Shown here: one piece after another, positions 13,673-56,479 of the stretch
Layout: the number at the start of each line of letters is the position of its first letter
How positions within the stretch are numbered: the stretch's first letter is position 1
From: Usitatibacter sp.
GTDB taxonomy: Bacteria; Pseudomonadota; Gammaproteobacteria; Burkholderiales; Usitatibacteraceae
Direction: 5' to 3'
Assembly (NCBI GenBank): GCA_035519515.1
Contig: DATIWC010000058.1
Coordinates: 25,960 to 89,959, forward strand
DNA length: 64,000 nucleotides
Position numbers and translations under genes: made by a program
The notes under the pieces: model-generated
What the model saw: the letters and a program-made list of their open reading frames with translations, nothing else
Told to the model about the DNA's origin: nothing
Databases searched by the model: none

Positions 13673-14451
13673 CCGCGACGGTCCATCCCACGGCCATCGT
13701 CCACCCGCGCGCGAAGCTCGGCGACGGCGTGACGGTGGGCCCGTACACGGTGATCGACGGCGACGTGGAGGTGGGCGACGGCACGACCATCGGCACCCAC
13801 AACGTGATCACCGGGCACACGGTGATCGGGCGCGCCAACCGCATCTTCCACTTCTGCTCCATCGGCGAGGCCAACCAGGACAAGAAGTACAAGGGCGAGC
13901 CCACGCGCGTGGAGATCGGCGACCGCAACACCATCCGCGAATACACCTCCATCAACCGCGGCACGGTGCAGGACAAGGGCGTGACCCGCGTGGGCGACGA
14001 CAACTGGATCATGGCCTCCTCGCACGTCGCGCACGACTGCCGGGTGGGATCCAACACGGTGCTCGCCAACAACGCGAGCCTCGCGGGCCACGCGGAGGTG
14101 GGCGACTGGGCGGTGATCGGGGGGTTGTCGGGCCTGCACCAGTTCGTGAAGATAGGCCGCCACGTGATGATCGGCGCCGGCATCATCGTCACGCAGGACG
14201 TGCCGCCCTACGTGACCTTCGCGGGCAACCCGCCGCTGCCCTACGGCATCAACACCGAGGGGCTCAAGCGCCGCGGCTTCACGGCCGAATCCATCGCCGC
14301 GCTCAAGCAGGCGTACCGCACGCTCTACAAGTCGGGGCTGTCGCTCGCCGACGCGCGCGCCGAGCTCGAGCGCCAGGCGGCATCCTCGCCCGAGGTGCGC
14401 GTGTTCGCCGACTTCCTCGCCACCTCCACGCGCGGCATCGTGCGGGGATGA
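13669..14451 (+). CDS. lpxA: Acyl-ACP--UDP-N-acetylglucosamine O-acyltransferase
   Basis: 260 aa from GTG 13669 (GTGA overlap with the fabZ stop). Hexapeptide repeats and a C-terminal helical domain (…GLKRRGF…LKQAYRTLY…). Confidence 0.92.
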
Positions 14452-20069: not shown

Positions 20070-20122
20070 GCCTGCACCAAAGGGCCATGTCTCGCGCCTG
20101 CGGGCAGCCCTATCATTTAACA

Positions 20123-34842: not shown

Positions 34843-35750
34843 GCGAGCACCGGCCGCCCACCTTCTACGCGTGGCTTTCGCTCGTCACGTCCCTGGTGAC
34901 CATCGTGCTCAAGTTCGGCGCGTGGTGGCTCACGGGTTCCGTGGGGCTGCTCTCGGATGCGGTGGAGGCGGTGGTGAACATCGCCGCGGCGCTGGTGGCG
35001 CTCGCGGTGCTCACGTACTCGTCGCACAAGCCCGACCGCGAGCACAACTTCGGCCACGAGAAGGCGCAGTATTTCTCGAGCGGCATCGAGGGGGCGCTCA
35101 TCTTCGTGGCCTCCGGCGCGATCATGTGGAGCGCCGTCCCGCGCCTGCTGCAGCCGCAGCCCATCGAGCAGGTGAGCCTCGGCCTCGCCCTGTCGGTGGC
35201 TGCCGCGCTCGCCAATGCCGCGTGCGCCTGGGTGATGCTGCGCGCGGCGCGCGGGCACCGCTCCATCACGCTCGAGGCCGACGCGCGCCACCTGCTCACC
35301 GACGTGTGGACCACCGCGGGCGTCTTCGTGGGGGTCGTGCTGGTGCAATTCACCGGGTGGCTGCGCCTGGACCCGGTCATCGCGATCGCGGTGGCGATCC
35401 AGATCCTGTGGACCGGCTGGCACCTGATGCTGCGCTCCTTCGAGGGCCTCATGGACCGCGCGGTGCCCGAGGAGGACCGCGTGGCGATCGTCGCGGTGCT
35501 CGATTCGCTGCGCCACGAGGGCGGCGACTACCACGCCCTGCGCACGCGGGTGGCCGGCGCGAAAAGCTTCGTGGACGTGCACGTCCTCTTGCCCGGGGGC
35601 ATGACGGTGCAGGCCGGCCACGACATCGTGGAGCGCCTGGAGAACGAGATCCGCGCGAAGCTTCCCCACGTCGAGGTGCTGACCCACCTGGAGCCCCTCG
35701 AGGACCCGAAGAGCTGGGACGACCCGCAAAAGCCGCTCGCGGGGAGCTAG
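34839..35750 (+). CDS. Cation diffusion facilitator family transporter
   Basis: 303 aa from GTG 34839 (GTGA overlap with the LysR stop). …LLSDAVEAVVN…, …HLLTDVWTT… and a C-terminal cytoplasmic domain. Confidence 0.85.
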   Translation: MSEHRPPTFYAWLSLVTSLVTIVLKFGAWWLTGSVGLLSDAVEAVVNIAAALVALAVLTYSSHKPDREHNFGHEKAQYFSSGIEGALIFVASGAIMWSAVPRLLQPQPIEQVSLGLALSVAAALANAACAWVMLRAARGHRSITLEADARHLLTDVWTTAGVFVGVVLVQFTGWLRLDPVIAIAVAIQILWTGWHLMLRSFEGLMDRAVPEEDRVAIVAVLDSLRHEGGDYHALRTRVAGAKSFVDVHVLLPGGMTVQAGHDIVERLENEIRAKLPHVEVLTHLEPLEDPKSWDDPQKPLAGS

Positions 35751-36889
35751 CCGGGCTTGCCGTCGGCGCGCGCTCGCGTGAGCACGGGCCAGTAGGCGAC
35801 GAAGTAGGTCGCGAAGGCGGCGCTCCACAGGGCGCCCGAGGCGACCACGGTTCCCACGTAGAACGAAGGCAGGGTCGCCGCGCCCGCGACGCGCACGATC
35901 GCCGCCGCCATCACGAGCAGGTAGGCCGCGAGCTCCGCGCGCCCCGCGCGAAGCGTCCTTCCGCTGTGCCCCAGCGCCGTGCGGGTCATCATGCCGAGCG
36001 TCATGCCGCCGATGGCGCCGACGGTGAGCGCGTGGATCGCCGCGGGCTCGGGCACGAGCCCCGCCGCCGAAAGCGCGCGCAGCGTGAGATGCACGACGAT
36101 CCAGGCGTACGCGGCGTGCAGGATCCAGACGAGCGGGTTGCGCAGCGTGCGCCACGGACGCCACAGCGCGAGCCGTGCGGCATGCGCCACGGCCGCGATG
36201 GCCGCAAGCCCGCCCACGAACCCGAATCCCGCGGTATCGGCCGCGAGAAGGGCGAGCACGCTTCCCAGCGCGGCCCGCTCGACCCACGCGTTGCGCCCGG
36301 CGCCCGCGCCGGGGACGCCGTTGTTGGTGAACATGGGGATCACGCGCCCGCCGATCACCGAGATGATGAAGAGCGCCATGTCGAGGCCCGCCTGCAGGCT
36401 CGCGCGCGGCGGCCGGTCGATCACGCCGAGGAGCGATGCGTAGAAGGCGCACGATGCGACGGCGAACGCGCACAGCAGCGCCACGAAGAAGTAGTTGCGC
36501 CGGTTGCCCGACTGGGCGAGCGGAACGCCGATGCCGATGGCGACCGCCACGGGGAAGGTGGCATTCACGATCGCCGCCGCGTCGCCCGCCGGCGTGAGCA
36601 CGAGCACGCGGCCCGCGAGCCAGAGGGCCGCGTATCCGGCGAGCAACCCGCCCGTGGGCGTGGGCTGCGAGGTCCAGTTGCGCACCGCCGTGAAGAGGAA
36701 CCCGGTGATCACGGCGAGCGTGAAGCCGAAGAGCATCTCGTGCGCGTGCCACGCCGGGCCCTGCAGGTACGCGCCGGGCAGGCAGCCCGCGACCTGCAGC
36801 GCCCAGAGCGCGATCGATAGTGAGGCGAAGGCGCTCGCCAGGAGGTAGAACGGCCGGAACCCGAGGTTCCAGATCGCCCGGGAGGTCAG
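35747..36889 (-). CDS. nnrS: NnrS family haem-copper membrane protein
   Basis: …IWNLGFRPFYLL…AWHAHEMLFGF…, ~12 TM, 380 aa. No canonical start is available; a CTG at 36887..36889 overlaps the upstream TGA. Confidence 0.8.
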   Translation of the reverse strand: MTSRAIWNLGFRPFYLLASAFASLSIALWALQVAGCLPGAYLQGPAWHAHEMLFGFTLAVITGFLFTAVRNWTSQPTPTGGLLAGYAALWLAGRVLVLTPAGDAAAIVNATFPVAVAIGIGVPLAQSGNRRNYFFVALLCAFAVASCAFYASLLGVIDRPPRASLQAGLDMALFIISVIGGRVIPMFTNNGVPGAGAGRNAWVERAALGSVLALLAADTAGFGFVGGLAAIAAVAHAARLALWRPWRTLRNPLVWILHAAYAWIVVHLTLRALSAAGLVPEPAAIHALTVGAIGGMTLGMMTRTALGHSGRTLRAGRAELAAYLLVMAAAIVRVAGAATLPSFYVGTVVASGALWSAAFATYFVAYWPVLTRARADGKPG

Positions 36890-37260
36890 CGCTGCACCTT
36901 CAGCAGCGCGAGATGCGCGCCGGACCTGGCGGCGCCGCGGCCGATCTCGGCGAGCGCCTTCTCGGGCGCGATGCGCCCGTCCAGGGAGAAGGAGAGCGCG
37001 AGCGGCGACTGCGAGCTGCGCACGCTCGACCTGTCCACTCCGTGCGCGCGCCGTGCCGCATCCGCGGCCGCCTTCTCGAGGCGGCCCGCGTCCGCGTCGC
37101 CCTGGATCGCGGCGAAGACCACCGCGCGGTGCTCGCGCTTCGCCTGCTCGATCACTGCGTGGTCGTAGGTCGCGGCGATCTTGTCCTCGTCGCACGCCCC
37201 GCACGCGTAGGCGGGCGGCGTGAGCAGGCCCATCGCGAGCGCCGCCATGCAGAAGCACAT
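36886..37260 (-). CDS. Small secreted CxxC protein of unknown function (124 aa)
   Basis: MCFCMAALAMGLLTPPAYA|CGACDEDK… (signal peptide, then a CxxC motif). The ATG lies 2 nt after the nirK stop, and its own stop overlaps the nnrS start. Confidence 0.6.
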   Translation of the reverse strand: MCFCMAALAMGLLTPPAYACGACDEDKIAATYDHAVIEQAKREHRAVVFAAIQGDADAGRLEKAAADAARRAHGVDRSSVRSSQSPLALSFSLDGRIAPEKALAEIGRGAARSGAHLALLKVQR

Positions 37261-37262
37261 CC

Positions 37263-38717
37263 TCACTTGGCGCCCTCCTTGGGATGAAGGTTCGTGTCGG
37301 CCCACTTGAAGTACTCGATGTACTCGCGGATCTCGGGCTCGGACAGGTTCTGGTTGGGCATCGGGATCTTGTACTTGCCGAGCATCTGCTGGGCCACCGG
37401 ATCGGATTTCAGCACCGGCTCCGGGTTCTTCAACCAGCGCGCGATCCACGAGGCGTCGCGGCGCTTGGTTACCCCGAGGAGGTCCGGGCCTACCTTGTCG
37501 CCGCCGCCGATGGAGTGGCATGCGAGGCACTTGCTCTCGAAGGAGAGCTTGCCGCGCACCGCCGCCGGATCCGTCGGCGTGGGCGTGGCCGGAATGTTGT
37601 GGTGCTCGCTGTCGGCCGCGCCCTCCTCGCCCTTGCCGCCCGCGTCGATCAGGCCGATCGCGCCCTGCGAGGCGTTGGCGAAATGGTGGTCCACCATCAC
37701 GTACTTGCCCGCCTCGGCGAGGACGAATTCCACGATGGCCGAGGACGACGAGCCGAGCAGCACCGTCTGCATGCCGCGCATCTGGTTGTCGGGATTGCCG
37801 TCCATCCACACGCGATCGAAGATCGTGCCGACGACGTGGAAGCTCGACGTGTTGGAAGGGCCCACGTTCAGCACGAACAGGCGCACGCGCTCGCCCGGCT
37901 TGGCGGGCAGCGGCTTGTCGACCATGCCGTTGTAGCGGCCGTTGAACACGGTGTAGGTGGGCGCTTTCGAACGCACGCGGTCGCCGTCCAGCACGTAGAG
38001 CGGCACGCCGTCCACCTTGCGGTGCTGGGGGTCGAGCTTCGTGTAGAACTCGCTCTGGATCACGGCATATTCACGGTCCACCTGGGTCGGATACCCCCCG
38101 CGCGGCTCCACGATCATCATGCCGTACATGCCCGAGGCGATGTGCTCGAGCACCATGGGCGTACCGCAGTGGTACATGTACACGCCCGGATAGTTGGGCG
38201 TGAACTCGAAGCTGATGGTCTGGCCGGGCGCGACCGAGCGGTACTTGTCCTGCGGGGAGACCATCGCGGCATGGAAGTCCATCGAGTGCATCATGGGCGC
38301 GGCCGTGAAGGTGCCGCCGGGCATCTTCTCGTCGGAGCGGTTGGTCATCGAGAACTTGATGCGGTCGCCCACGCGCGCGCGCACCACCGGTCCCGGCACC
38401 TGGTTGCCGAACGTCCAGGCGGAGAATTTCACGCCCGGCGCGAGCTCGATGATCTTGTGGGTGGTGTCCAGGCGGATCTCCTTCACCGGCGAAGGATCGA
38501 GCGGCTTCACGTAGGCGTCCATCGAGAGGGCGCTGCCCTGCGCGAAGTCTCCCGTGTGCCGTTCGCTGGAGAGCACCGCGGGCACGGGCTTCAGGTCCAT
38601 CTTCGCCGGGTCGTAGGGGTCGGCGGTCGCAGCGGCCCTGGAAGCCGGGGGCGTGGGCTGGCATGCGGCGAGGATCGCGATCGCGAGGGTGGCGAGCGCC
38701 ACTCGGGTCGGGAACAT
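37263..38717 (-). CDS. nirK: Copper-containing nitrite reductase NirK, lipoprotein form with C-terminal cytochrome c domain
   Basis: Cu-ligand blocks MMHSMDFHAA and YMYHCGTPMVLEHIASGMYGMMIVEP. Lipobox LAIAILAAC. C-terminal ~100 aa carry CLACH plus a PMP Met ligand. Start set at ATG 38717 (AGGAGA SD 7 nt upstream); the ORF-track start 38750 is also possible. Confidence 0.9.
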   Translation of the reverse strand: MFPTRVALATLAIAILAACQPTPPASRAAATADPYDPAKMDLKPVPAVLSSERHTGDFAQGSALSMDAYVKPLDPSPVKEIRLDTTHKIIELAPGVKFSAWTFGNQVPGPVVRARVGDRIKFSMTNRSDEKMPGGTFTAAPMMHSMDFHAAMVSPQDKYRSVAPGQTISFEFTPNYPGVYMYHCGTPMVLEHIASGMYGMMIVEPRGGYPTQVDREYAVIQSEFYTKLDPQHRKVDGVPLYVLDGDRVRSKAPTYTVFNGRYNGMVDKPLPAKPGERVRLFVLNVGPSNTSSFHVVGTIFDRVWMDGNPDNQMRGMQTVLLGSSSSAIVEFVLAEAGKYVMVDHHFANASQGAIGLIDAGGKGEEGAADSEHHNIPATPTPTDPAAVRGKLSFESKCLACHSIGGGDKVGPDLLGVTKRRDASWIARWLKNPEPVLKSDPVAQQMLGKYKIPMPNQNLSEPEIREYIEYFKWADTNLHPKEGAK

Positions 38718-38750
38718 CGAAAATCTCCTGGAAAGTAGCGGGCGTGTCAT

Positions 38751-38773
38751 AAGGTAGATATCGTATGCACCTT
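38751..38773 (-). promoter_or_regulatory. Candidate NsrR operator (11-1-11 dyad) in the nirK promoter
   Basis: AAGGTAGATAT-C-GTATGCACCTT. 8/11 arm symmetry with an ATGCA core, resembling NsrR boxes. Confidence 0.5.
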
Positions 38774-38786
38774 TGCGCGAATCCCT

Positions 38787-38800
38787 TTGATCCAGGTCAA
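38787..38800 (-). promoter_or_regulatory. Candidate Dnr/FNR box upstream of nirK
   Basis: TTGATCCAGGTCAA (TTGAT-N4-GTCAA), overlapping the stop of the upstream membrane-protein gene. Confidence 0.6.
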
Positions 38801-39879
38801 CCGGCGGGACGCCCGGGCCGGCGCCGCGCCGCGAAGATCGTGGCCGCGATGGATACCACGAACAGCGCGAGCGTCACGGCATTGAGCACGCCTCCCAGGC
38901 GCCGCAGCTCGGCCTGGGCGAAGCCGCCAATGACGCGCAGGGCGAGCGAGCCGTGCAGCGCCACCAGGGGCACGTAGAGGAAGGGGGCGTAGCCCATCGG
39001 CACGCGCGCGACCGCCGGGACGATGACCGGCGCGTGGGCGAGGATCATGGAGAACACGAAGCCCAGCCCCAGGGCGTGCAGCGCCAGGTCGCGGGCGCGC
39101 GGCTCGATGGTGGCCGAAGAAATCCATGCGAACCCGGCCACCGCAAGCCACGCGTAGCCCGCGAGCAGCGCGGTGGCGGCGAACCGCGCGAAGCCCTGCG
39201 TGCGTATCGTGCGGCGCGCGAGGTCGAAGATCGTGAGCCATGCCGCCAACGCCACCAGGCCGGCGCCATACGCTACGGCCGCGGAGACGGGCTCGACGAG
39301 CGTGGCCGCCGCCGCACAGAGGATGAACACCGTGATCGCGAGCAACACCCCTTCGGCCCAGCGCGGGCGGGCAAGGAGCCGCGTCATCTCGAGGCGCTCG
39401 GCGGCGATGGTCACCACGAGGAACGCGAACCACCAGGGGATGACCGTTGCGGCTGGGGCTGCGGCCGCGTACAACGCGTTGCCGTTGAGGAGCGCGACCG
39501 CCGCGGCGGCGAGGAGCAACGTGTGGCTTTGCGGCTGGCGCCGCGCGATCGCCGCGCTCGCCGCCACGAGGCCGAGGGCGGCGAAAACGAAGAGGGCCCG
39601 GGCGCACGAAGGCTCGCCCAGCAACAGCAGCAGGGCGCCGCATCCTGAGGCGAGCGGAACGGCAAGCGCGATGCGCGGGCCCAGCGCCACTGCGCGCTCG
39701 AGGCCGATCACCGTGGCGAGGAAGCCCGCGATCATCAGCGCGCCGTGGTCTGCCGCGGCCGCGCCTGCGCTCGCTACGCCCAGCCGTGCGAGCCCGCCGG
39801 CGACGCCCGCCGCGAGCGAGGCGACCGCGAGCGCAAGGAGCGCCAGCCGGGCGATTCGATCGCCGCGGCTCAGTCCCAT
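38797..39879 (-). CDS. Hypothetical polytopic membrane protein (~360 aa, ~10 TM)
   Basis: ORF 38797..40020, with the start placed at ATG 39879 (MGLSRGDRIARLALLALAV). Recurrent helix-end motifs IGLERA / IAAERLE and conserved His residues (DHGALM, ILAHAP, LHGS). I recognise no family. Confidence 0.6.
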   Translation of the reverse strand: MGLSRGDRIARLALLALAVASLAAGVAGGLARLGVASAGAAAADHGALMIAGFLATVIGLERAVALGPRIALAVPLASGCGALLLLLGEPSCARALFVFAALGLVAASAAIARRQPQSHTLLLAAAAVALLNGNALYAAAAPAATVIPWWFAFLVVTIAAERLEMTRLLARPRWAEGVLLAITVFILCAAAATLVEPVSAAVAYGAGLVALAAWLTIFDLARRTIRTQGFARFAATALLAGYAWLAVAGFAWISSATIEPRARDLALHALGLGFVFSMILAHAPVIVPAVARVPMGYAPFLYVPLVALHGSLALRVIGGFAQAELRRLGGVLNAVTLALFVVSIAATIFAARRRPGRPAG

Positions 39880-40193
39880 TCCATCGCCGCGCGGGCCGAG
39901 TCGCTCATCCGCTCCGGCGTCCACGGCGGGTCCCAGCAGAGATCGACTTGCACCTCGCGGCCGAGGGCGGCGGCGAGCTCGTGCTGGACGTCGTCGATGA
40001 TGAGCCCGGCCACCGGGCACGCCGCGGAGGTCATGGTGATGCGAACGTGCACGCGGTCCTCGCGCATGGCCACCCCGTACACCAATCCAAGCGCGAGGAC
40101 GTCGAGCGCCATCTCGGGATCGACCACCCGGCGCAACGCCTGCTCGATCGCCGGGCGCAGCGCCGCATCGCCTTCCAGCGTGAAGTCGTTCAC
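39870..40193 (-). CDS. DUF59 (MIP18/SufT-like) Fe-S cluster assembly/repair family protein
   Basis: 107 aa from GTG 40193 (GTGA overlap with the nsrR stop). …LRRVVDPEMALDVLALGLVYGV…VHVRITMTSAACPVAG… is the DUF59 signature. Confidence 0.75.
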   Translation of the reverse strand: MNDFTLEGDAALRPAIEQALRRVVDPEMALDVLALGLVYGVAMREDRVHVRITMTSAACPVAGLIIDDVQHELAAALGREVQVDLCWDPPWTPERMSDSARAAMEWD

Positions 40194-40642
40194 CGGGTCC
40201 TCGCCGGCGGATGCCAATGCAGGTGGCGCGCGAGCTCGCGGCGGTTCGCGACGAGGTCGGCGAGCGTGTAGCGGCCGAGCGTGGCGTAGAAGCTCTCGAC
40301 CGCCTCGCCCAGCACGTGCTCCAGGCGGCAATGGCCCGCGATGGGGCAGTCGGCCTCGCCCGTCGTGAAGCATTCCGCGGGAACGTCGCGGCCCTCGGTC
40401 GCGCGAACGACCTGGGCGACGCCGATGGATTCGGGGGCGGCGGCGAGCCGCATGCCGCCGCCGCGTCCGCGCGCGTTGTCGAGGAACCCGGCGCGGCCGA
40501 GCTCGTGGGCGACCTTCACGAGGTGGTTCTCCGAGATGCCGAACGCCTCGGCCACCTCCGCGATGGTGACGCGCTCGCGCTGCGAGCCCGCCACGTAGAT
40601 CAGCAGGCGCAGGCTGTAGTCGGTAAAGGTCGTGAGGCGCAT
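40190..40642 (-). CDS. nsrR: Rrf2-family NO-sensing repressor NsrR
   Basis: MRLTTFTDYSLRLLIYVA HTH, three Cys (…ECFTTGEADCPIAGHC…) for the Fe-S cluster, 150 aa. Start at ATG 40642 within listed ORF 40190..40696. Confidence 0.85.
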   Translation of the reverse strand: MRLTTFTDYSLRLLIYVAGSQRERVTIAEVAEAFGISENHLVKVAHELGRAGFLDNARGRGGGMRLAAAPESIGVAQVVRATEGRDVPAECFTTGEADCPIAGHCRLEHVLGEAVESFYATLGRYTLADLVANRRELARHLHWHPPARTR

Positions 40643-40646
40643 CTTT

Positions 40647-40669
40647 AAGATGGAAATGCTATGCACCTT
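40647..40669 (-). promoter_or_regulatory. Candidate NsrR operator (autoregulation) upstream of nsrR
   Basis: AAGATGGAAAT-G-CTATGCACCTT. Shares the 10-mer TATGCACCTT with the nirK site. Lies 4 nt from the nsrR ATG. Confidence 0.5.
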
Positions 40670-40682
40670 ATGCGCGGCCCCG

Positions 40683-40696
40683 TTGACGCAGATCAA
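40683..40696 (-). promoter_or_regulatory. Candidate Dnr/FNR box upstream of nsrR
   Basis: TTGACGCAGATCAA (9/10 to TTGAT-N4-ATCAA). It has the same 13-nt spacing to the NsrR dyad as at nirK. Confidence 0.6.
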
Positions 40697-40789
40697 CGGG
40701 CGCGAAGGCCGAGCTCGTGCACGCTGCCGACTACGCGGACGCCCTCGAACGCATCGAGGCGCTCGAGGGCGTGCTGCGGCGGATCGCGT

Positions 40790-43087
40790 TTACGACGCCG
40801 CGCGAGGGCGAGTGGGAGTCGGCGTGGCGGGCGTTTCAGCGGGACGCGCGATCGCTGCTTTCGGGCGAGCCAGCAGCTTGAGCGCGTAGAGCGCGAGCGC
40901 GAGGGCCCCGAGGGCGAAGACGATATCGCCCGGCACGCGCAGCCAGACCAGCGTCTCCATCACGCCCGAGTGCACGATCGCGGGCGAGCGCGCATACCAG
41001 AGGCCGTGGGTGATGCTGTAGTAGGCCTGGTAGATGCCCGCCGGCAGCAGCGACCCGAACACCATCATCGCGAGCCCGATGTTCATGCCCCAGTACGCCG
41101 GCGCGAGGATGCGGTCGGCATGGCGGCTGCGCTCGAAGAGGCCGCGCAGGCAGAAGAGCATGAGGCCGATGCCCAGCATTCCGTACACCCCGAAGAGCGC
41201 GGCGTGGCCGTGCGCGGGTGTCATGTTGAGGCCCTGCACGTAGTAGAGCGCGGCCGGCGGGTTGATGGAGAAGCCGAGCAGGCCCGCGCCCACCGTGTTC
41301 CAGAAGCCCACGGCGACGAAGCTGAGGATGGCCCACTTGTAAGCCTGCACCCAGGGGGCCGCCTGGCTGCGGCGGTAGTTGCGGTACGCCTCCACGCCGA
41401 TCATGGCGAGCGGCACCACCTCGAGGGCCGAGAACACCGCCCCCACGGCGATCACCGAGGTGGGCGTCCCCGTCCAGTAGAGGTGATGCAGCGTGCCGAG
41501 GATGCCGCCGAACAGGAACACGATGGTCTCCAGCACGATGGCGCGGTTGGCGCTCGAGGCGGCGATGAGCCCCAGGCGCGTGAAGATGAGCGCCACCACG
41601 GCCGTCGCGAACACCTCGAAGAAGCCTTCCACCCACAGGTGCACGAGCCACCATCTCCAGTATTCGACCATCGAGTAGTGGGTGTGCTGGCCCCACACCA
41701 GGGACGCGGCGTAGAAGCCGCCGATGCAGGTGGCCGAGAGGAACACCATGGCGACGAGGCCGCGGGTCTCCGAGGGGCGCTTCAACGCCGGCCACAACGC
41801 GCGGCCCAGGAGGAGCAGCCAGAAGAGCAGGCCCACGAAGAGCAGGATCTGCCACACGCGGCCCATGCTCGTGTACTCGAGGCCCTGGTTGCCGAGCCAG
41901 AACGTGTAGTCGAAGCCCATGCGCTGGAGCGTGCCGAGCCACCCGAAGGCCGTCGAGCCCACCACGATCGCCACCAGCGCGTAGAAGAGCACGTCCACGC
42001 CGAGCTTCTGCAGCTTCGGCTCATGGCCGGAAAGCAGCGGCGCGATGTACAGGCCCGTCGCGAGCCATGCGGTCGCGATCCAGAACACGCCCATCTGCGT
42101 GTGGATGGTGCGGCTCACCGTGAACGGCAGCCAGTCGGCTAGCGGGAACCCGAAGAAGCCCTGCCCCTCGACGGAGTAGTGCGCGGTGATCGCGCCCATG
42201 CCGATCTGCAGGAGGAGCAGCCCGATCACGACGAAGAAGTACTTGCGGGTCGCCTTCATCGAGGGCGTGGCCACGGCGTTCACCAGGGGGTCGCGCTCAG
42301 GCGCCGCCGGATCGGGCGCCTCGGCATGGCGCGCCTGGAACCAGACCATGCCCGCGACGCCGGCGATGAGCAGGATGATGGAGGCGATGGTCCACATCGC
42401 GGCGCTCGGAGGCATCGTGTTGCCCACCAGCGGCTCGTGCGGCCAGTTGCTCGTGTACGAAAGCCCCGCTTCGCCGGGGCGATCGGTGGCGGCGGCCCAT
42501 GAGGACCAGAAGAAGAACCCGGCGAGCGCCTTGCGGTCGGCGTCGCGCGGCAACGCGTTCGCGGTCATCGCATAGCGCTCGCGCAGCTTCTCGAGCGCGG
42601 GCGCGTTGCCGAAGAGCCCGACGAAGTGATCCTGCACCTGGGCGATCGCCGCGGCGCGCTCGTCGCTCACGGTGAGCGTGTTGGTCGCCGCGTCATAGCT
42701 GTTCTTGCGCAGCTCGTCGCGCGAAAGCGCGTCGACCGAGGCGCGCTGGGCGGCGGCGAGGTCGGCGTAATGCGTGGAATACATCGTTTGCGCGCGCACG
42801 TCGCGATAAGCCGTCGCCTCGCGATGCAGCCAGTCCGCGGACCAATCGGGCGCCACGTAGCTGCCGTGGCCCCAGACCGTTCCCAGCTGCTGCCCGCCGG
42901 CGGCGAGCCACGCGCGCTGCCCTTCCTGGATCTCGCCGGCGGTGTACAGCACCGTCCCGCCCGCCGTCTTCACCGTCGGGATGGGAGGTGCCGCGAGGTA
43001 GATCTCCCGGCCGATGTAGCCCAGCGCCGCGAAGGACAGCACGAAGATCGCCGCCAGCCATTTCCAGAGGTTCCGGTTCGTTTCCAT
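40790..43087 (-). CDS. norB: Quinol-dependent nitric oxide reductase (qNor, long NorB/NorZ)
   Basis: ~765 aa. N-terminal TM plus periplasmic extension without CxxCH, then a 12-TM haem-copper oxidase core (…HHLYW…, …GHGHAALFG…). Start set at ATG 43087 (METNRNLWKW), because the TTG 43162 track start lies inside the FNR box. Confidence 0.88.
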   Translation of the reverse strand: METNRNLWKWLAAIFVLSFAALGYIGREIYLAAPPIPTVKTAGGTVLYTAGEIQEGQRAWLAAGGQQLGTVWGHGSYVAPDWSADWLHREATAYRDVRAQTMYSTHYADLAAAQRASVDALSRDELRKNSYDAATNTLTVSDERAAAIAQVQDHFVGLFGNAPALEKLRERYAMTANALPRDADRKALAGFFFWSSWAAATDRPGEAGLSYTSNWPHEPLVGNTMPPSAAMWTIASIILLIAGVAGMVWFQARHAEAPDPAAPERDPLVNAVATPSMKATRKYFFVVIGLLLLQIGMGAITAHYSVEGQGFFGFPLADWLPFTVSRTIHTQMGVFWIATAWLATGLYIAPLLSGHEPKLQKLGVDVLFYALVAIVVGSTAFGWLGTLQRMGFDYTFWLGNQGLEYTSMGRVWQILLFVGLLFWLLLLGRALWPALKRPSETRGLVAMVFLSATCIGGFYAASLVWGQHTHYSMVEYWRWWLVHLWVEGFFEVFATAVVALIFTRLGLIAASSANRAIVLETIVFLFGGILGTLHHLYWTGTPTSVIAVGAVFSALEVVPLAMIGVEAYRNYRRSQAAPWVQAYKWAILSFVAVGFWNTVGAGLLGFSINPPAALYYVQGLNMTPAHGHAALFGVYGMLGIGLMLFCLRGLFERSRHADRILAPAYWGMNIGLAMMVFGSLLPAGIYQAYYSITHGLWYARSPAIVHSGVMETLVWLRVPGDIVFALGALALALYALKLLARPKAAIARPAETPATPTPTRPRAAS

Positions 43088-43148
43088 GGTCTCTTTCCGT
43101 TCCGCCAAGTCGATGCGGCGATTGTTCCGCGCGCGGACTTGCGGCGCC

Positions 43149-43162
43149 TTGAACTGGTTCAA
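43149..43162. promoter_or_regulatory. Candidate Dnr/FNR box in the norB / DUF2249 divergent region
   Basis: TTGAACTGGTTCAA, embedded in CTTGAA-N4-TTCAAG with perfect 6-bp arms. Centre is ~68 nt upstream of norB ATG 43087. Confidence 0.6.
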
Positions 43163-43188
43163 GGAAGAGCGAGCGGGCCGCGGGCACG

Positions 43189-43410
43189 ATGACTCCCATG
43201 AACATCGTCGCGGTCGACCTGCGGGAACTGCCCGCCCCCGAGCCCCTGCTTCGCATCCTCGAGGCTACGGGCGAGGGAGCCGGTCCGCATGTCTTCCTGC
43301 TGCCCTTCGAGCCGCGCCCGCTTTATCCCCTCCTCGAAAGCCGCGGGTGGGATGTGAAATCGCGTGCGCTCGACGATGCGATCGAGGTGACCGTTTCGAG
43401 GAAACGTTGA
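43189..43410 (+). CDS. DUF2249 domain protein
   Basis: 73 aa. VDLRELPAPEPLLRILEA…PFEPRPLYPLLESRGW matches the DUF2249 pattern commonly found in NO-responsive loci. Confidence 0.7.
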   Translation: MTPMNIVAVDLRELPAPEPLLRILEATGEGAGPHVFLLPFEPRPLYPLLESRGWDVKSRALDDAIEVTVSRKR

Positions 43411-43420
43411 CCTACTTCAA
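43407..43420 (+). promoter_or_regulatory. Candidate Dnr/FNR box upstream of nirS
   Basis: TTGACCTACTTCAA (8/10 to consensus), centred ~70 nt upstream of the nirS ATG. Overlaps the DUF2249 stop. Confidence 0.45.
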
Positions 43421-43453
43421 GTCAAGCGCCGCGCCGCGGATCACACTTCATAA

Positions 43454-45253
<1,800 letters not shown>

Positions 45254-45280
45254 CGATTTCGACGGGGGAGGACTCGTCCG

Positions 45281-45310
45281 GGCGCCCGGCAGCGGGCGCC
45301 TTCTCTTTTA
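45281..45310 (+). terminator. Rho-independent terminator of nirS
   Basis: GGCGCCC-GGCAGC-GGGCGCC followed by TTCTCTTTTA. The T-rich tail overlaps the convergent dnr stop codon. Confidence 0.6.
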
Positions 45311-46024
45311 CGCGTCGGAGGCGGCGCCCAGGGCGCGCAGGCCTTCCGGATCGAGGATCTCGATGTCGCGGGCGTCGATGCGCACCAGGCCGCGGGCGGC
45401 CATGTCGTGCAGGATGCGCGAGAAATACTCGGGCGTGAGGTTCAGGCGCGAGGCCACCAGCGCCTTCTGCGCGGGAAGCGTCACGCGGTGCGACCCGGTT
45501 TCCTCGTCCAGGCGGGCGAGGTACCCGATCACGCGCTGGGTGGCCGAATGCAGCGACACGGCCTCGAGGTCCTTCATCAGCATGTGGGTGCGCACCGAGA
45601 GGCTCGCCAGCATGCGCCGCGCGAGCGCGGGCTCGCGGTCGATCTCGGCGAAGAGGGTGGCCTTGTTCACGTGCAGCAGGAGCGAATCGGCGAGCGCGAT
45701 GGCGTCCACGATGTACGGGCGCCCCGCGAACATGAGCGCCTCGCCGAAGGACATGCCGGGGCCCACGATCTCGACCACCTTCTCGTCGCCCGCGGGATTC
45801 ACGAGCGCGAGCTTCACGCGGCCCACCGCCACCACGTGGAAGCCTTCGCACGGGTCGCCCCGGTGGAAGATCGCCTCGCCACGCGCGGCGCGCACTTCGC
45901 GCGTCCCGGCGGCGATGCGGGCAAGGTCTTCGGGCGCGAGGCCGCGGAAAAGCGGCGCGTGCGAGAGCAGCTCGTGCACGCGCGAGGCGCCGTTCCCGCC
46001 GCTTCGCGGGGCGTGGGTATCCAT
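45308..46024 (-). CDS. dnr: Crp/Fnr-family transcriptional regulator, Dnr/Nnr type
   Basis: 238 aa from ATG 46024 inside listed ORF 45308..46291. cNMP-like domain, no N-terminal Cys cluster, HTH with LNLTPEYFSRIL (E--SR recognition motif). RVHELLSHAPLF aligns with P. aeruginosa Dnr RVHQQLLQSHHLF. GTG 45979 is an alternative start. Confidence 0.85.
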   Translation of the reverse strand: MDTHAPRSGGNGASRVHELLSHAPLFRGLAPEDLARIAAGTREVRAARGEAIFHRGDPCEGFHVVAVGRVKLALVNPAGDEKVVEIVGPGMSFGEALMFAGRPYIVDAIALADSLLLHVNKATLFAEIDREPALARRMLASLSVRTHMLMKDLEAVSLHSATQRVIGYLARLDEETGSHRVTLPAQKALVASRLNLTPEYFSRILHDMAARGLVRIDARDIEILDPEGLRALGAASDA

Positions 46025-46100: not shown

Positions 46101-48305
46101 ATGAATATGAATCCCCTCCTTCCGCTGGTGCTGGGCGTGGCGCTGCCGCCCGCCGCGGGCGAGGTCGTGCGCCAGGAGCCGATCATCGTCACCGCCGTGG
46201 CGAGCCGCGTGTTCGAGCCCATCGACGAGACGCCCGCCACCGTCACCGTGATCGAGCGCGACCGCATCGAGCGCGAAGTGGCGCGCGACATCCGCGATGC
46301 CTTGCGCTACGAGCCCGGCGTCTCGGTGGTGAACAACCCGACGCGATTCGGCCTGGGCAACGTGAACATCCGCGGCCTCGACGGCAACCGCGTGCAGATG
46401 ATGCAGGACGGCATCCGCCTGCCCGACGGCTTTTCCATCGGCAGCTTTTCCAACGCGAACCGCAATCCGTTCGACCTGGGGCTGCTCTCGCGCATCGAGA
46501 TCCTCCGCGGACCCGGCTCGGCGCTCTACGGCTCGGACGCGCTGGCGGGCGTGCTCTCCATGACCACGATCGACCCGGGCGACCTCATGAAGCCGGGCGC
46601 CTCCTACGGCGGCTTCGCCGAAGGGATCGGCGCCGAGGCGGACCATTCGCTCGCGGGAACGCTGGCGGGCGCCGCGCGCACGGGTCCCGTGGAGATGCTC
46701 CTCGCGGGCAGCTACGGCAAGGGCCACGAGCGCGACAACCAGGGAGCCAACGACGTGGTGGGCATCACCCGCACCACGCCCAACCCGCAGGACACGCGAT
46801 CGACCTCGGGGCTTGCGAAGATCGCGTACGTCGCCGCCGACGGCGCGCGCACCCGCCTCACGTGGGACCGCTATGACCACCGCGCCGAGACCGACGTCCT
46901 TTCCCTCAACCCGCAGTCGGTGAAGACCGTGAGCCTTACCGCGAACGACGACGCCAACCGCGAGCGGGTAAGCCTCGACGGCGAGTTCCTGGGCCGGGGC
47001 GCGGCGGAGAGGATCACCTGGCTCGCGTACAGCCAGAACGCGCAGACGGCGCAGGAGACCGACGAGGTCCGCGCGAACACGACCGCGCAATGCCTCTCGG
47101 CGAACGGGTCCATCTCGTGCCATCGCCATGCGCGCTTCACGTTCGGCCAGGACGAGTACGGCGCCACCGTGATCGGCGAGGGCACGGTCGCGAAGGCGCA
47201 CCGCATCGTCTACGGCGCCGAGTACACGCACGGCACGATCGAGGAGATGCGCGACGGCGAGCAGACCAACCTCAACACGGGGCAGGTCACCAACGTGGTG
47301 GGCACCGACGTCTTCCCGACGCGCGACTTCCCGAGCTCGCGCGTGCAGCGCTGGGGCGTTTTCGGGCAGGACTCCTGGGACCTGCAGTCGGTGACGCTCA
47401 TCCCGGCGCTGCGCTACGACCGCTTCGACATGCATCCGGAGCCGGATGCGACGTACACGAACGCGAACCCCGGCCGCACGCCGGTCGCGTTGAGCGACAG
47501 CGCGTGGTCGCCGAAGCTGGGCGCCCTCGTGCCCGTCGGCGCCGACACCACGTTCACGATGCAGCTCGCGACGGGCTTTCGCGCGCCGCCTTACTACGAC
47601 GCCAACGTCGGCATCTCCAACCTGCCGCTGGGCTACACGGTGATTCCGAACCCCGACCTCCAGTCCGAGAAGAGCCGCGGCATCGAGGCGGGGCTGCGCG
47701 GCCGACACGCGGCGTTCGACTACTCGCTCACGGCCTATCGCACCGACTACGACAACCTCATCATCTCGCGCGCACCGCTCGTATGCCCCGGCGATCCGCA
47801 CTGCGTGCCCGGCGCGCCCATCACCTTCCAGTCGCAGAACGTGACCAAGGCGCGCATCGAGGGCGTGGAGGCCTGGGTCTCCGCGCGGATCGCGCAGGGC
47901 TGGACCGCGCGCGGCGCGGGCTCCTGGGCGCGCGGCGACGACCGCACGAAGAACGTGCCGTTGAACAGCATCGACCCGCCGAAAGTCGTCGCGGGGCTCG
48001 CCTGGCAATCCCTGGACAAGACGTGGGGCAGCGAAGGCATCCTCACGCACGCGTGGGAGAAATCGCGCATCGACACCTCGGCCGGCAAGCTGGTGCCGTC
48101 GCCCGCCTACACGATCCTCGACCTCACGGCGTTCGTGAAGTTGAGCGAGAAGGTCACCGCGTACGCGGGCGTCTTCAACCTGACCAACCAGAAGTACTGG
48201 CTGTGGTCGGACGTGCGCGGCCTCACGAACCTCGCGGCGGGCGCCTTCGACCGCTACACGCAGCCCGGGCGCAACGCGGCGATCACCGTGAAGGTGGTGT
48301 TCTGA
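46101..48305 (+). CDS. TonB-dependent outer membrane receptor (FRAP / NPxL motif type)
   Basis: 734 aa from ATG 46101 within listed ORF 45363..48305. TonB-box-like EPIIVTA, plug domain (…NIRGLDGNRVQMMQDGIRLPD…), GFRAPPYYD…IPNPDLQSEKS, terminal …VKVVF. Confidence 0.85.
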   Translation: MNMNPLLPLVLGVALPPAAGEVVRQEPIIVTAVASRVFEPIDETPATVTVIERDRIEREVARDIRDALRYEPGVSVVNNPTRFGLGNVNIRGLDGNRVQMMQDGIRLPDGFSIGSFSNANRNPFDLGLLSRIEILRGPGSALYGSDALAGVLSMTTIDPGDLMKPGASYGGFAEGIGAEADHSLAGTLAGAARTGPVEMLLAGSYGKGHERDNQGANDVVGITRTTPNPQDTRSTSGLAKIAYVAADGARTRLTWDRYDHRAETDVLSLNPQSVKTVSLTANDDANRERVSLDGEFLGRGAAERITWLAYSQNAQTAQETDEVRANTTAQCLSANGSISCHRHARFTFGQDEYGATVIGEGTVAKAHRIVYGAEYTHGTIEEMRDGEQTNLNTGQVTNVVGTDVFPTRDFPSSRVQRWGVFGQDSWDLQSVTLIPALRYDRFDMHPEPDATYTNANPGRTPVALSDSAWSPKLGALVPVGADTTFTMQLATGFRAPPYYDANVGISNLPLGYTVIPNPDLQSEKSRGIEAGLRGRHAAFDYSLTAYRTDYDNLIISRAPLVCPGDPHCVPGAPITFQSQNVTKARIEGVEAWVSARIAQGWTARGAGSWARGDDRTKNVPLNSIDPPKVVAGLAWQSLDKTWGSEGILTHAWEKSRIDTSAGKLVPSPAYTILDLTAFVKLSEKVTAYAGVFNLTNQKYWLWSDVRGLTNLAAGAFDRYTQPGRNAAITVKVVF

Positions 48306-49492
48306 AGCCCTGGCGCCTGCGCGGCCGCGACCTCCTGCCGCTCGTGCAGGGCGGCATGGGCGTGGGCATCTCGGCGCACAACCTCGCGGGCAGCGTCGCG
48401 CGCCTGGGCGCCATGGGCACGATCGCGAGCGTGGAGCTGCGCCAGCACCATCCCGACCTCCTCGCCCAGACGCAGGGCAAGCGCGACCGGGCGGCGATCG
48501 ACCGGACCAACCTCATCGCGCTGGACCGCGAGATCCGCGCGGGCCTCGTCCTCTCCGAGGGCCGCGGCGCCATCGCCGTGAACGTGATGAAGGCCGTGAA
48601 CGAGCACGCCCACTATGTGCGCCAGTCGTGCGAGTCGGGCGCGCACGCGATCGTGATGGGGGCGGGGCTGCCGCTCGACCTCCCCGACCTCACGCGCGAC
48701 TTCCCCGACGTGGCCCTCGTCCCGATCCTCTCGGAGCCGCGGGGCGTGAGCATCGTGCTGCGCAAGTGGATGAAGAAGAACCGCCTGCCCGACGCCATCG
48801 TGATCGAGCATCCGCGCTACGCGGGCGGCCACCTCGGGGCCACGCGCCTGGAAGACGTGGCCGATCCCAAGTTCGATTTCGAGACCGTGTTCGCGGGCAT
48901 CTTCGCGGTGTTCGCGGACCTCGGGCTCGAGCGCGAGCGCATCCCGCTGATCGCCGCGGGCGGCGTGGCCACGCCCGGGAGGTTCCGCGAGCTGCTCGCG
49001 CTGGGCGCGGCGGCGGTCCAGCTGGGCACGGCCTTCGCGGTGAGCCTGGAAGGCGACGCGCACCCGAACTTCAAGCACGTCCTCGCCGAGGCGCGCCCCG
49101 AGGACATCGTGACGTTCATGAGCGTCGCGGGGCTTCCGGCGCGTGCGGTGGCAACCCCGTGGCTGCGCCACTACCTGGCCCGCGAGAAGGCGCTGCAGGC
49201 GCACGCGAAGGCGGACCCGCGCCGCTGCGTTCCCGGCGCCGAATGCCTCACGGTCTGCGGCCTGCGCGACGGCATCGCCACGGCCGGGCAGTTCTGCATC
49301 GCGACGCGCCTTGCAAATGCCTTGCACGGCAACGTGAAGACGGGGATCTTCTTCCGCGGCTCGGAGCCGCTGCCGTTCGGCGCGGCCATCCGGCCGGTGG
49401 CCGACCTCTTCGACTACTTCCTCGGCGGGACGGCGCATATAATCGGCGCATGGCCGCCGTCACCCCCGCCAAAGCCACCGACCGGAAGCTGA
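48302..49492 (+). CDS. Nitronate monooxygenase / 2-nitropropane dioxygenase family (FMN TIM-barrel) protein
   Basis: …LLPLVQGGMGVGIS…, …IVMGAGLP…, …IAAGGVATPGRFRELLALGAAAVQLGTAF…. No canonical start lies upstream of the QGGMG strand. A CTG at 48302 overlaps the receptor TGA; GTG 48344 is the first canonical option. Confidence 0.7.
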   Translation: MKPWRLRGRDLLPLVQGGMGVGISAHNLAGSVARLGAMGTIASVELRQHHPDLLAQTQGKRDRAAIDRTNLIALDREIRAGLVLSEGRGAIAVNVMKAVNEHAHYVRQSCESGAHAIVMGAGLPLDLPDLTRDFPDVALVPILSEPRGVSIVLRKWMKKNRLPDAIVIEHPRYAGGHLGATRLEDVADPKFDFETVFAGIFAVFADLGLERERIPLIAAGGVATPGRFRELLALGAAAVQLGTAFAVSLEGDAHPNFKHVLAEARPEDIVTFMSVAGLPARAVATPWLRHYLAREKALQAHAKADPRRCVPGAECLTVCGLRDGIATAGQFCIATRLANALHGNVKTGIFFRGSEPLPFGAAIRPVADLFDYFLGGTAHIIGAWPPSPPPKPPTGS

Positions 49493-55309: not shown

Positions 55310-56479
55310 TCAGGGCTGCGCGTCCTCCAGCGTGCCGAGGAATGCCACGAGGTCGTCGATTTCGGCCTCGGTGAGCCGCGGGGCCTCGCCGGGCTTGCGG
55401 TCGTAAGGCACCTCGCTCACGTTGACGTTGGCGCGATAGCCCTCGGGCAGGTCGTCGAACTTCACGCCGCCCGCATACCAGCGCTCCGGGCTCGTGTCGC
55501 GCGTCACGTAGAAGGCGACCACGTCGCGCAGGCGGGTGAAGTAGCCGTTGTGCATGAAGGCGGCCTTGCGCGTGGCGTTGCGCAGCGTCGGCACCTTGAA
55601 GGCGCCGCACGCGCCCGTATCGGCCACCGGCGCGCGCTTCGGTCCGCACAGCCCCAGGTCGAAGAAGGATGGATCGGCATTCGCCGGGATGGCGCGGTTG
55701 CGCGGCACGCCCAGGTTGTCGTACGTGAAATCGGTGAAGAGCGAATCGCGCGGCACTTTCGAATTCGGGTCCGCGGCATGGCAGGCCGCGCAATTGCCTT
55801 TCTGCGCGTCCATGAAGAGCGCGAGCCCGCGCGACTCCTGCGCCGTGAGCGTTTCGCGGCCCTGCACGTAGCGGTCGTATTTCGAGGAGAACGGCGCGAA
55901 GCGCGCCGAGCGCTCGAAGGCGCCGATGGCGGCGGTGAGGGCATCGATCGCCTTCTGCGGCGTGGCGAACACCTCGGGACCGAACTGCGCGAGCATATCG
56001 CCTGCGTACGCCGCGTTCATCACCTTGGCCGCGAGGTGTGCTTCCGACGGATTCGCCATCTCGCTCGCCGACAGCAGCGGCAGGCGCGCCTGCTCCTCCA
56101 GCGTGTCCACGCGGCCGTCGAGGAACTGGCCGCCCGTGGGCGTGGGGCCGTCGTCGCTGTCCACGATAGCGAAGGGCGGCGAGAACATCGCGTACATGGC
56201 GCTCGGCGTGTTGCGAAGGCCGAGCGTCGTGCCGTCGCTGCCCAACGGGACTCCCGTGGTGCTGCCGTGGTTACCCGAGAACGCCCGCGCGGGATCGTGG
56301 CAGCTCGCGCAGCTCGTGCCCGGCGGCTCGGACAGCGCGGTGTCGAAGAAGGCGGCCTTGCCGATGCGCTGGACCGGGTCCAGGTCGGCGTCGGGATCCG
56401 GGGAGCGCGGGGTCGTTTGTGAGCAGCCGCTCACGAAAACGAGGGCCAGGATCGTGGGCAGGAAATCCACAAGTCGCAT
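55310..56479 (-). CDS. ccp: Di-haem cytochrome c peroxidase (CCP/MauG family), lipoprotein
   Basis: Lipobox FVSGC. Two haem motifs, CASCH and CAACH. …FKVPTLRN…, …MHNGYF…. Confidence 0.88.
   Translation of the reverse strand: MRLVDFLPTILALVFVSGCSQTTPRSPDPDADLDPVQRIGKAAFFDTALSEPPGTSCASCHDPARAFSGNHGSTTGVPLGSDGTTLGLRNTPSAMYAMFSPPFAIVDSDDGPTPTGGQFLDGRVDTLEEQARLPLLSASEMANPSEAHLAAKVMNAAYAGDMLAQFGPEVFATPQKAIDALTAAIGAFERSARFAPFSSKYDRYVQGRETLTAQESRGLALFMDAQKGNCAACHAADPNSKVPRDSLFTDFTYDNLGVPRNRAIPANADPSFFDLGLCGPKRAPVADTGACGAFKVPTLRNATRKAAFMHNGYFTRLRDVVAFYVTRDTSPERWYAGGVKFDDLPEGYRANVNVSEVPYDRKPGEAPRLTEAEIDDLVAFLGTLEDAQP

Follow-up and report, generated by a model that had tools for sequence, protein, structure and literature searches.

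Within a 64,000-nucleotide stretch of DNA from a Usitatibacter sp. of the Burkholderiales (hereafter the window), we analysed an island of nitric oxide (NO) metabolism that encodes both a copper-type (nirK) and a cytochrome cd1-type (nirS) nitrite reductase. The window has a G+C content of approximately 70% and is part of a 129,570-bp contig of a metagenome-assembled genome (MAG) deposited at NCBI as 'MAG TPA: Usitatibacter sp.', with proteins HUL96052-HUL96092 assigned by exact look-ups. Genes were chosen by third-position GC and named using Pfam and NCBIfam. The island extends from 35.7 to 49.5 kb and comprises, in order, nnrS(-), the gene for a small protein termed p126(-), nirK(-), and genes for a membrane protein(-), a DUF59 protein(-), an NsrR-like regulator(-), the quinol-dependent NO reductase qNor(-) and a DUF2249 protein(+), followed by nirS(+), a dnr-like gene(-) and genes for a TonB-dependent receptor(+) and an NMO-family protein(+) (Table 1). 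The start codons of nirK and nirS are 4,767 bp apart, in agreement with the initial annotation, which had placed both about 5 kb apart in one NO-metabolism island and whose identities and coordinates for nnrS, nsrR, qNor, DUF2249 and dnr were reproduced by Pfam and NCBIfam. Five island genes are additional to those it listed, namely the 126-amino-acid open reading frame (ORF) and the genes for the 360-amino-acid membrane protein, the DUF59 protein, the receptor and the NMO-family protein. The presence of glnD, map, rpsB, tsf, pyrH, frr, uppS, cdsA, dxr, rseP, bamA, skp, lpxD, fabZ, lpxA and lpxB at 1-17 kb of the window, all housekeeping genes, indicates that the region is chromosomal.

The NirK translation matched the Pfam families Cu-oxidase_3 (52 bits), Cu-oxidase_2 (43 bits) and Cytochrom_C (35 bits) and contains all of the motifs HSMDFH, YHCGTPMVLEHIASGM, SSFHVVG, DHHF and CLACH. 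Alignment of these motifs with the Geobacillus NirK structure 3x1e (245 bits) recovered its type 1 and type 2 copper ligands together with the catalytic aspartate and histidine. The type 1 set (His-Cys-His-Met) is complete, consisting of the first H of HSMDFH and the C, H and M of YHCGTPMVLEHIASGM, and so is the type 2 set, consisting of the second H of HSMDFH, the H preceding the Cys in YHC and the H of VDHH; the conserved catalytic residues are the D of HSMDFH and the H of SSFHVVG. Among solved structures, the Geobacillus enzyme GtNiR (3x1e) was followed by AniA (185 bits), 2zoo (183 bits) and 3ziy (179 bits), while class I enzymes scored about 88 bits. NirK covered positions 27-316 of the 326 in the NCBIfam model TIGR02376 but remained below its equivalog cut-off (192.2 versus 296.3 bits); because the solved class II NirKs were the best PDB matches, this low score is probably due to the model having been built from class I enzymes. 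A C-terminal cytochrome c domain with the CLACH motif was found at residues 398-482 (PF00034, 35 bits against a cut-off of 21.3), and the combined Cu-oxidase and cytochrome c architecture was present in all of the best 120 homologues. The N-terminus, read directly from the sequence, has a lipoprotein-type signal with the lipobox LAAC, which we take to be comparable to that of Neisseria AniA.

NirS matched Cytochrom_D1 (PF02239, 511 bits) and a c-type haem domain (PF13442, 47 bits). Over residues 43-589 it aligned with Pseudomonas aeruginosa NirS (5guw/1nir) at 882 bits, compared with 117 bits for NirN (6rtd). The haem c residues are retained (CAGCH and, in GMPNWG, the equivalent of Met88), and the d1 and catalytic residues are identical to those of 1nir/5guw: Tyr10, Arg156, the d1 ligand His182, the distal His327 and His369, and Arg372 in P. 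aeruginosa numbering. The protein also holds the LHD motif (FLHDGGW) typical of NirS; LHD marks NirS, whereas LDD and PyD mark the paralogues NirN and NirF (PMC10999283, supplement). The score difference and the LHD motif together rule out an assignment to NirN or NirF. Relative to the nearest homologues, the ratio of nonsynonymous to synonymous substitution rates (dN/dS) was 0.24-0.26 for NirS and 0.20-0.22 for NirK, and both genes are under purifying selection. The initial annotation had described a NirK with intact copper-ligand blocks and a full-length NirS with a CAGCH haem c domain and a d1 propeller, and had considered that one of them might be a ligand-deficient paralogue or pseudogene, for example a NirN-like protein. 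Both descriptions held up at residue level, and neither of the two is such a paralogue or a pseudogene.

The island was not confined to the NCBI contig. It was found entire in two ENA contigs of 40 and 68 kb (the L001/L002 pair; L and P numbers denote compared loci), with protein identities of 98-100%, and four further, shorter contigs hold its nirS side. An identical NirS was encoded on six metagenome contigs from six samples. The GC content at third codon positions (GC3) and codon usage were uniform. The island is thus a real and reproducible dual-Nir locus.

Promoter boxes were examined by scanning the whole window with the pattern TTGAY-N4-RTCAA, allowing at most one mismatch. Four matches were obtained where 1.41 were expected, and all four are in promoter regions of the island; a weaker box is included with them in Table 1. 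Their distribution suggests that the island may form one Dnr/FNR-type regulon and is probably co-regulated. Since nirK and nirS carry the same FNR/Dnr box type (at 76 and 70 nt), the division of labour by O2 range that had been proposed for the two enzymes is not suggested by our data. A split along Cu versus Fe/haem limitation, proposed alongside it, is possible.

The site lies between acs-LysR-CDF and T2SSE-penicillin amidase, and its content differs between members of the genus. In one Usitatibacter (L095-L097) the same site holds only Rrf2-NirK-p127-NnrS, with no nirS and no receptor, and in another (P0170 locus) it holds this core together with qNor, DUF2249 and Crp, again without nirS and receptor. 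A metagenome contig that has no nirK (L108) shows the layout of the window island minus nirK-p126, namely NnrS-membrane protein-DUF59-NsrR-qNor / nirS-nirC / Dnr / receptor, and DUF2249-nirS-Dnr-receptor is found in L008 as in the window. The gene orders show NsrR-NirK-p127-NnrS as the genus core at this site and nirS and the haem-type receptor as variable add-ons; nirK is native here. Given both the nirK-only relatives and the nirK-less L108, the island is best described as a mosaic of a genus-typical nirK core and a nirS-bearing block.

Codon usage, expressed as z-scores relative to 22 flanking genes, was close to that of the host for nirK (-0.43), nirS (+0.56) and the receptor gene (-0.32), with dnr also within -0.43 to +0.56. 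Deviant values were confined to the genes for the membrane protein (z -4.2), the DUF59 protein (z -2.2) and the DUF2249 protein (z -7.2), the last of which is the most deviant in the window (GC3 0.76). Tested by composition for horizontal transfer, nirK, nirS, dnr and the receptor gene all lacked a foreign signal, and tetranucleotide correlations were uninformative for segments so short. The closest homologues of both reductases are from Usitatibacter: those of NirK (86-90%) are encoded in Usitatibacter MAGs and have the same fused architecture, and the best NirS match among GTDB species representatives was at 84-85%. Synonymous divergence (dS) to the nearest Usitatibacter homologue was alike for NirS and NirK, at 0.43-0.45. 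Similar dS values and host-like codons would fit an exchange of modules among related soil betaproteobacteria and not a recent distant import. Of the earlier proposal that one module had recently been added by lateral transfer, the addition is borne out by the sister sites without nirS and by L108 without nirK; a recent foreign donor, in contrast, is not supported, given the host-like codons and the Usitatibacter origin of the closest homologues.

The most interesting lead of the follow-up is the association of nirS with the TonB-dependent receptor. This protein has both the plug domain (PF07715, 100 bits) and the 22-strand barrel domain (PF00593, 169 bits) and scored above the curated cut-offs of TIGR01786 (393 versus 324 bits) and TIGR01785 (332 versus 317 bits); its best solved relative is PhuR (8the, 340 bits). 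A FRAP box is located at residues 493-496 and an NPDL box at 517-520. Between the two there is a tyrosine (Y512) and no histidine, and we assume that this tyrosine is equivalent to the haem-ligand Tyr of PhuR. In the receptor alignment (A1) P496, Y512, N517, P518, D519 and L520 are invariant, and F493 is not. No ChuX/HemS or phuSTUV partner was found in the window or at any nirS-linked locus. Where members of the family occur without nirS, ChuX-PhuTUV follow them directly (L124, L125, L127, L138-L140), as in the phuRSTUV locus on a Sphaerotilus sulfidivorans plasmid (L180) that served as control. The plasmid collection contained only generic haem receptors with 34-38% identity, one of which was this control.

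To place the pairing in context, 123 nirS loci were compared, 42 with the receptor adjacent (from among the window, L008-L012, L016, L018, L102-L177, L192 and L193) and 81 without this receptor. Genes for d1 synthesis flank nirS at none of the 42 receptor-adjacent loci and at 63 of the 81 others (Fisher p=6e-19); when both flanks were required to be at least 3 kb long, the counts were 0/29 and 49/55. The nirS loci are of two exclusive forms, either with d1 synthesis genes or with a partner-less haem-type receptor. The closest NirS relatives of the window also pair nirS with the receptor and have no d1 genes, and in a scan of metagenomes with the receptor alignment the pairing extended down to 29-33% identity, with most members that had enough flank adjoining nirS. 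Two main layouts were observed, Dnr / receptor-nirS-nirC and divergent nirS and receptor. In neighbour-joining trees without bootstrap, the receptor-linked state was spread over about seven clades of NirS and no fewer than three of the receptor, and the nirS-linked members interleaved with ordinary, phu-linked haem-uptake receptors. Some receptor-linked NirS proteins cluster at 90% identity with those of Curvibacter delicatus, Ottowia and Comamonas, and a 1.55-Mb contig (L193, JGI and NCBI) with the order receptor / nirS-nirC-d1-propeller beside norCBQD encodes the NirS protein that bears the name of C. delicatus (WP_066710706).

Many receptor-linked loci have, after nirS(-nirC), short divergent ORFs with a Cytochrom_D1 domain (35-102 bits) that are nearer to the NirN propeller than to NirF, as in L111 (14358-15158), L143 (6798-8042), L170 (6163-7521) and L192 (12382-13446). 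The last d1 steps, those of NirF and NirC, are periplasmic, and these ORFs may encode periplasmic d1-handling proteins. Several receptor-nirS loci (L111 343-8056, L118 2-7696, L008 3-9060) also adjoin a conserved block with one COX2-like and two COX1-like genes, SCO1/SenC, and genes for cytochrome b plus 4Fe-4S proteins, which may represent a haem-copper reductase module of an unusual kind, for NO or O2. In the searchable literature nothing relevant was found on uptake of d1, on auxotrophy for it or on a TonB receptor linked to nirS. Whatever its substrate, the receptor is a new candidate for an accessory protein of cd1 nitrite reductases.

The activity of NirS depends on a supply of haem d1, which makes this supply the decisive point. 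The window's lack of d1 genes is not evidence of their genome-wide absence. In Acidovorax sp. GCA_027492855.1 (L191, 5471-12848) the genes ccm / nirE / nirC-F-DL-G-H-J-N / nor form a cluster without nirS, and in Hydrogenophaga (L190, 3209-12893) nirS occupies exactly the slot that is vacant there; within the Comamonadaceae nirS has therefore been uncoupled from its cofactor genes. A stand-alone pair of nirS and receptor is present on the Acidovorax-type contig L155, and the Acidovorax cluster thus indicates that unlinked d1 clusters occur in lineages with stand-alone nirS. After this finding, a general d1 deficiency of nirS-receptor genomes was down-weighted. Three loci considered as d1 loci of the source organism (P0132, P0109 and P0067) were rejected, being ordinary nirS-d1 clusters from other samples.

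On balance we favour, with fair though not full confidence, a chromosomal dual-Nir NO island of soil Usitatibacter in which two unrelated, complete, NO-forming nitrite reductases would have been brought together. The conserved genus core at this site consists of NsrR, p126, NnrS and a class II NirK of lipoprotein type that brings its own cytochrome c as a fused domain; NirS is part of a variable block (membrane protein-DUF59-nsrR-qNor / DUF2249-nirS / dnr / haem-type TonB receptor) that was presumably joined to it by module shuffling among related soil betaproteobacteria. Low O2 and NO would switch on the whole island together via the FNR/Dnr-type boxes, NirK and NirS would be interchangeable at different cofactor costs (Cu versus Fe, haem c and haem d1), and qNor would remove their NO product. 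NirS would obtain haem d1 from genes elsewhere in the genome. Several points count against this account. The boxes are consensus matches and as such putative Dnr sites, and the one between dnr and the receptor gene is 35-41 nt from both start codons, which leaves its target ambiguous. No nirF, nirDLGH, nirJ, nirE or nirN was found in approximately 78 kb, made up of the window and some 7 kb on either side of it, and no nirM or nirC electron donor gene adjoins nirS. Two NirJ searches, a weak test, returned no Usitatibacter-named entry among the best 120 matches (at least 74-75% identity). The source genome is, moreover, a MAG, and the island is known from its genes alone. That the MAG was built from short reads could even mean that an assembler joined nirK and nirS from different organisms, an idea to which we attach hardly any probability: the gene order is identical in the NCBI contig and in ENA contigs from different samples, both flanks are syntenic with other Usitatibacter genomes, and GC3 and codon usage are uniform. 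Occurrence of the whole island in independent ENA assemblies, three assemblies in all with the NCBI one, excludes a chimeric join. It is also unlikely that only NirK works, nirS having arrived without d1 genes in a genome that cannot make d1, so that NirS would be an inactive semi-apo protein in the course of being lost. The absence of d1 genes within about 78 kb, the sister genomes without nirS at the same site and the 63 of 81 receptor-less loci with d1 genes directly beside nirS would all agree with such a history. It is opposed by the intact catalytic and haem residues of NirS, its NirK-like dN/dS, its identity in six contigs from six samples, the host-like codon usage and well-placed putative FNR/Dnr box of its gene, the widespread and conserved occurrence of stand-alone nirS with the receptor (42 loci), and the Acidovorax d1 cluster that is unlinked from nirS.

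The role of the receptor is a separate question. It may be a normal haem receptor under Dnr control that serves a haem- and iron-hungry denitrification, its proximity to nirS having no meaning for the cofactor; we put the chance of this a little short of even. The receptor passes the family cut-offs, is closest to PhuR among solved proteins, has both the FRAP and NPDL boxes, and belongs to a tree in which nirS-linked and phu-linked members are mixed. The P. aeruginosa haem-receptor sigma factor HxuI, which up-regulates nir, nor and nos, offers a possible precedent by analogy (PMC8768829). Such an economy of iron and haem leaves unexplained the strict exclusion of receptor and d1 genes at nirS, the absence, at 42 loci, of any cytoplasmic partner for uptake or degradation of haem, and the receptor-nirS-nirC layouts that look co-transcribed (L109, L111, L116-L119). 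Alternatively, the receptor might import haem d1 or a late precursor to the periplasm, or recapture leaked d1, with semi-apo NirS being loaded without, or besides, synthesis in the cell; the exclusion and the missing cytoplasmic partners favour this reading, which we nevertheless regard as improbable. Consistent with cofactor scavenging, the receptor and d1 genes never occur together at nirS in either comparison (0/42 versus 63/81; 0/29 versus 49/55), the pairing recurs in about seven clades of NirS and three or more of the receptor, ChuX and PhuTUV are missing beside nirS-linked receptors but lie directly downstream of those family members that have no nirS, and nirS and receptor are jointly present or absent in Usitatibacter. 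Several loci encode a maturation-type periplasmic NirC and a d1-propeller protein, never the cytoplasmic enzymes; NirF and NirC carry out a late d1 step and are required for the last ones (PMC13168839). PqqU, which is reported to import PQQ for periplasmic dehydrogenases, could be a parallel. On the other side, the full Acidovorax d1 cluster without nirS and the Acidovorax-type nirS-receptor contig L155 imply that these lineages probably make d1, the interleaving with ordinary haem-uptake receptors suggests an ordinary haem substrate, and no report of d1 uptake was found in the searchable literature. There are cultured Comamonadaceae with NirS of such clusters, and these denitrify in pure culture. 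If scavenging were true, this Usitatibacter would be a NirK denitrifier whose acquired nirS provides a 'borrowed-cofactor' enzyme, loaded without nirDLGH, nirJ and nirE, and d1 made by neighbouring denitrifiers would be shared in soil as a public good, much like cobalamin or PQQ.

Table 1. Genes and putative promoter boxes of the dual-Nir island (positions in the window)
Feature	Position	Strand	Evidence or remarks
nnrS, haem/copper membrane protein of NO regulons	35747..36799	-	PF05940 NnrS 359 bits; gene called likewise in L001/L002
p126, small secreted protein, 126 aa	36886..37266	-	directly downstream of nirK
nirK, class II (AniA/GtNiR-like) Cu nitrite reductase, 484 aa	37263..38717	-	Pfam, motifs, PDB alignment
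FNR/Dnr box TTGATCCAGGTCAA	38787..38800		0 mismatches; centre 76 nt upstream of nirK ATG
Polytopic membrane protein, 360 aa	38797..39879	-	homologues beside DUF59 in L046, L049, L056, L098, L108, L190
DUF59 / FeS_assembly_P protein	39870..40193	-	PF01883 62 bits
Rrf2-family regulator, NsrR-like	40190..40642	-	PF02082 119 bits
FNR/Dnr box TTGACGCAGATCAA	40683..40696		upstream of nsrR-DUF59-membrane protein genes
qNor, quinol-dependent NO reductase, single-subunit NorB/NorZ type	40790..43087	-	PF22085 218 bits, PF00115 186 bits
Weaker FNR-like box TTGAACTGGTTCAA	43149..43162		2 mismatches; divergent qNor/DUF2249 promoter region
DUF2249 protein	43189..43410	+	PF10006 32 bits
FNR/Dnr box TTGACCTACTTCAA	43407..43420		centre 70 nt upstream of nirS ATG
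nirS, cytochrome cd1 nitrite reductase, Sec signal, 589 aa	43484..45253	+	Pfam, PDB alignment
Crp/Fnr-family regulator, Dnr-like	45308..46024	-	PF00027 + PF13545
FNR/Dnr-like box TTGTCCTGCGTCAA	46059..46072		1 mismatch; 76-bp divergent dnr/receptor intergenic region
TonB-dependent receptor, haem/haemoglobin family, PhuR-like	46101..48305	+	TIGR01786, TIGR01785, PhuR 8the
NMO-family (nitronate monooxygenase-like) flavoprotein	48356..49492	+	PF03060 93.5 bits

The remaining genes of the island are less well characterized. The nnrS gene call encodes 350 amino acids, and the Pfam match suggests that its true start may be near 36877. No Pfam or NCBIfam match was obtained for p126; its homologues, a family of about 125 amino acids with an invariant ACGxCxED..TYD motif (alignment A2), are encoded just downstream of the cytochrome-fused nirK in all relatives that were inspected (L095-L099, P0170 locus; for example L095 4531-4914 and L098 11665-12030), and p126 is a candidate NirK accessory that might act in Cu or thiol chemistry. 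The 360-amino-acid membrane protein had no Pfam match. Its pairing with DUF59 recurs in betaproteobacterial NO and denitrification loci, adjoining nirK, nirS or norCB (in Hydrogenophaga L190 at 13865-15261). The Rrf2-family regulator scored 116 bits with the NsrR model and 130 bits with the RirA model, both under the equivalog cut-offs. A DUF2249 gene is retained beside qNor or nirS in relatives (L008, P0170 locus, L118). The NMO-family gene directly follows the receptor gene both here and in L169 (650-1729) and is also part of the P0170 relative's island; its product might act under nitrosative stress or stress from nitro compounds. Elsewhere in the window, two tandem patatin-Omp85 (PlpD-like) genes, encoding 733 and about 730 amino acids, are located at 17868-22333, and a di-haem CCP/MauG-family protein is encoded 7 kb downstream of the island at 55310-56479 (-), with MbnH-like and MauG models as its best NCBIfam matches, all below cut-off.

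Co-occurrence of nirK and nirS was reported for 5.3% of assemblies (PMC10999283), in keeping with the minority state that the initial annotation had noted. Physical adjacency of the two genes also looks uncommon: nirK was not found within 10 kb of nirS at any of the 122 other nirS loci (flanks up to 10 kb), and no nirS was present at the inspected loci of NirK relatives (L095-L099, P0170 locus). Rare co-occurrence was known; here it takes a new form, the physical linkage of a class II, cytochrome-fused NirK with a stand-alone NirS. Counts of 'two kinds' of soil denitrifiers routinely rely on the two genes as markers that exclude each other, and a common soil genus with both in one probably co-regulated island is more evidence that this dichotomy leaks. 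The island also provides a compact natural system for asking why cells keep two enzymes for one step, at the cost of Cu on the one hand and of Fe/haem on the other.

Each component has well-studied counterparts. With the class II NirKs GtNiR (3x1e) and AniA (1kbv), the window NirK shares two cupredoxin domains, full type 1 and type 2 ligands and the C-x7-H-x4-M spacing, and with the Ralstonia pickettii and Pseudoalteromonas enzymes RpNiR (3ziy) and PhNiR (2zoo) it shares a C-terminal CxxCH cytochrome c domain. Its core is closest to GtNiR (245 bits), yet GtNiR has no fused cytochrome, and the match to RpNiR and PhNiR reaches only 179-183 bits. Compared with the P. aeruginosa cluster nirSMCFDLGHJEN, the window nirS encodes a protein (882 bits) that keeps every residue for haem c, haem d1 and catalysis, and it likewise has a Dnr-type regulator gene nearby and an ANR/Dnr-type box upstream. 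In contrast to that operon, it is not followed by nirM, nirC, nirF, nirDLGH, nirJ, nirE or nirN, its neighbours being DUF2249, dnr and the haem-type TonB receptor gene, and NO is removed by qNor instead of NorCB. The receptor is of the same family as those of PhuR-type loci (phuR-phuSTUV), with FRAP and NPNL-type boxes and a Tyr between them, but it is paired with nirS in place of an adjoining ChuX/HutX, periplasmic binding protein, permease and ATPase.

The closest parallels for the combination of a Cu-type and a cd1-type reductase within one genome are Bradyrhizobium oligotrophicum S58 and B. nitroreducens TSA1. In TSA1 both nirK and nirS are transcribed under denitrifying conditions, and the Bradyrhizobium nirS is thought to be horizontally acquired (PMC6167111); for S58 the two enzymes have been reported, as cited in the same paper, to be functionally redundant. 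The window differs from these dual-nir genomes in that its two genes share one island at a distance of 4.8 kb and have the same promoter box type, its NirK is of class II with a fused cytochrome c, its nirS has no adjoining d1 genes, and its host is an uncultured betaproteobacterium.

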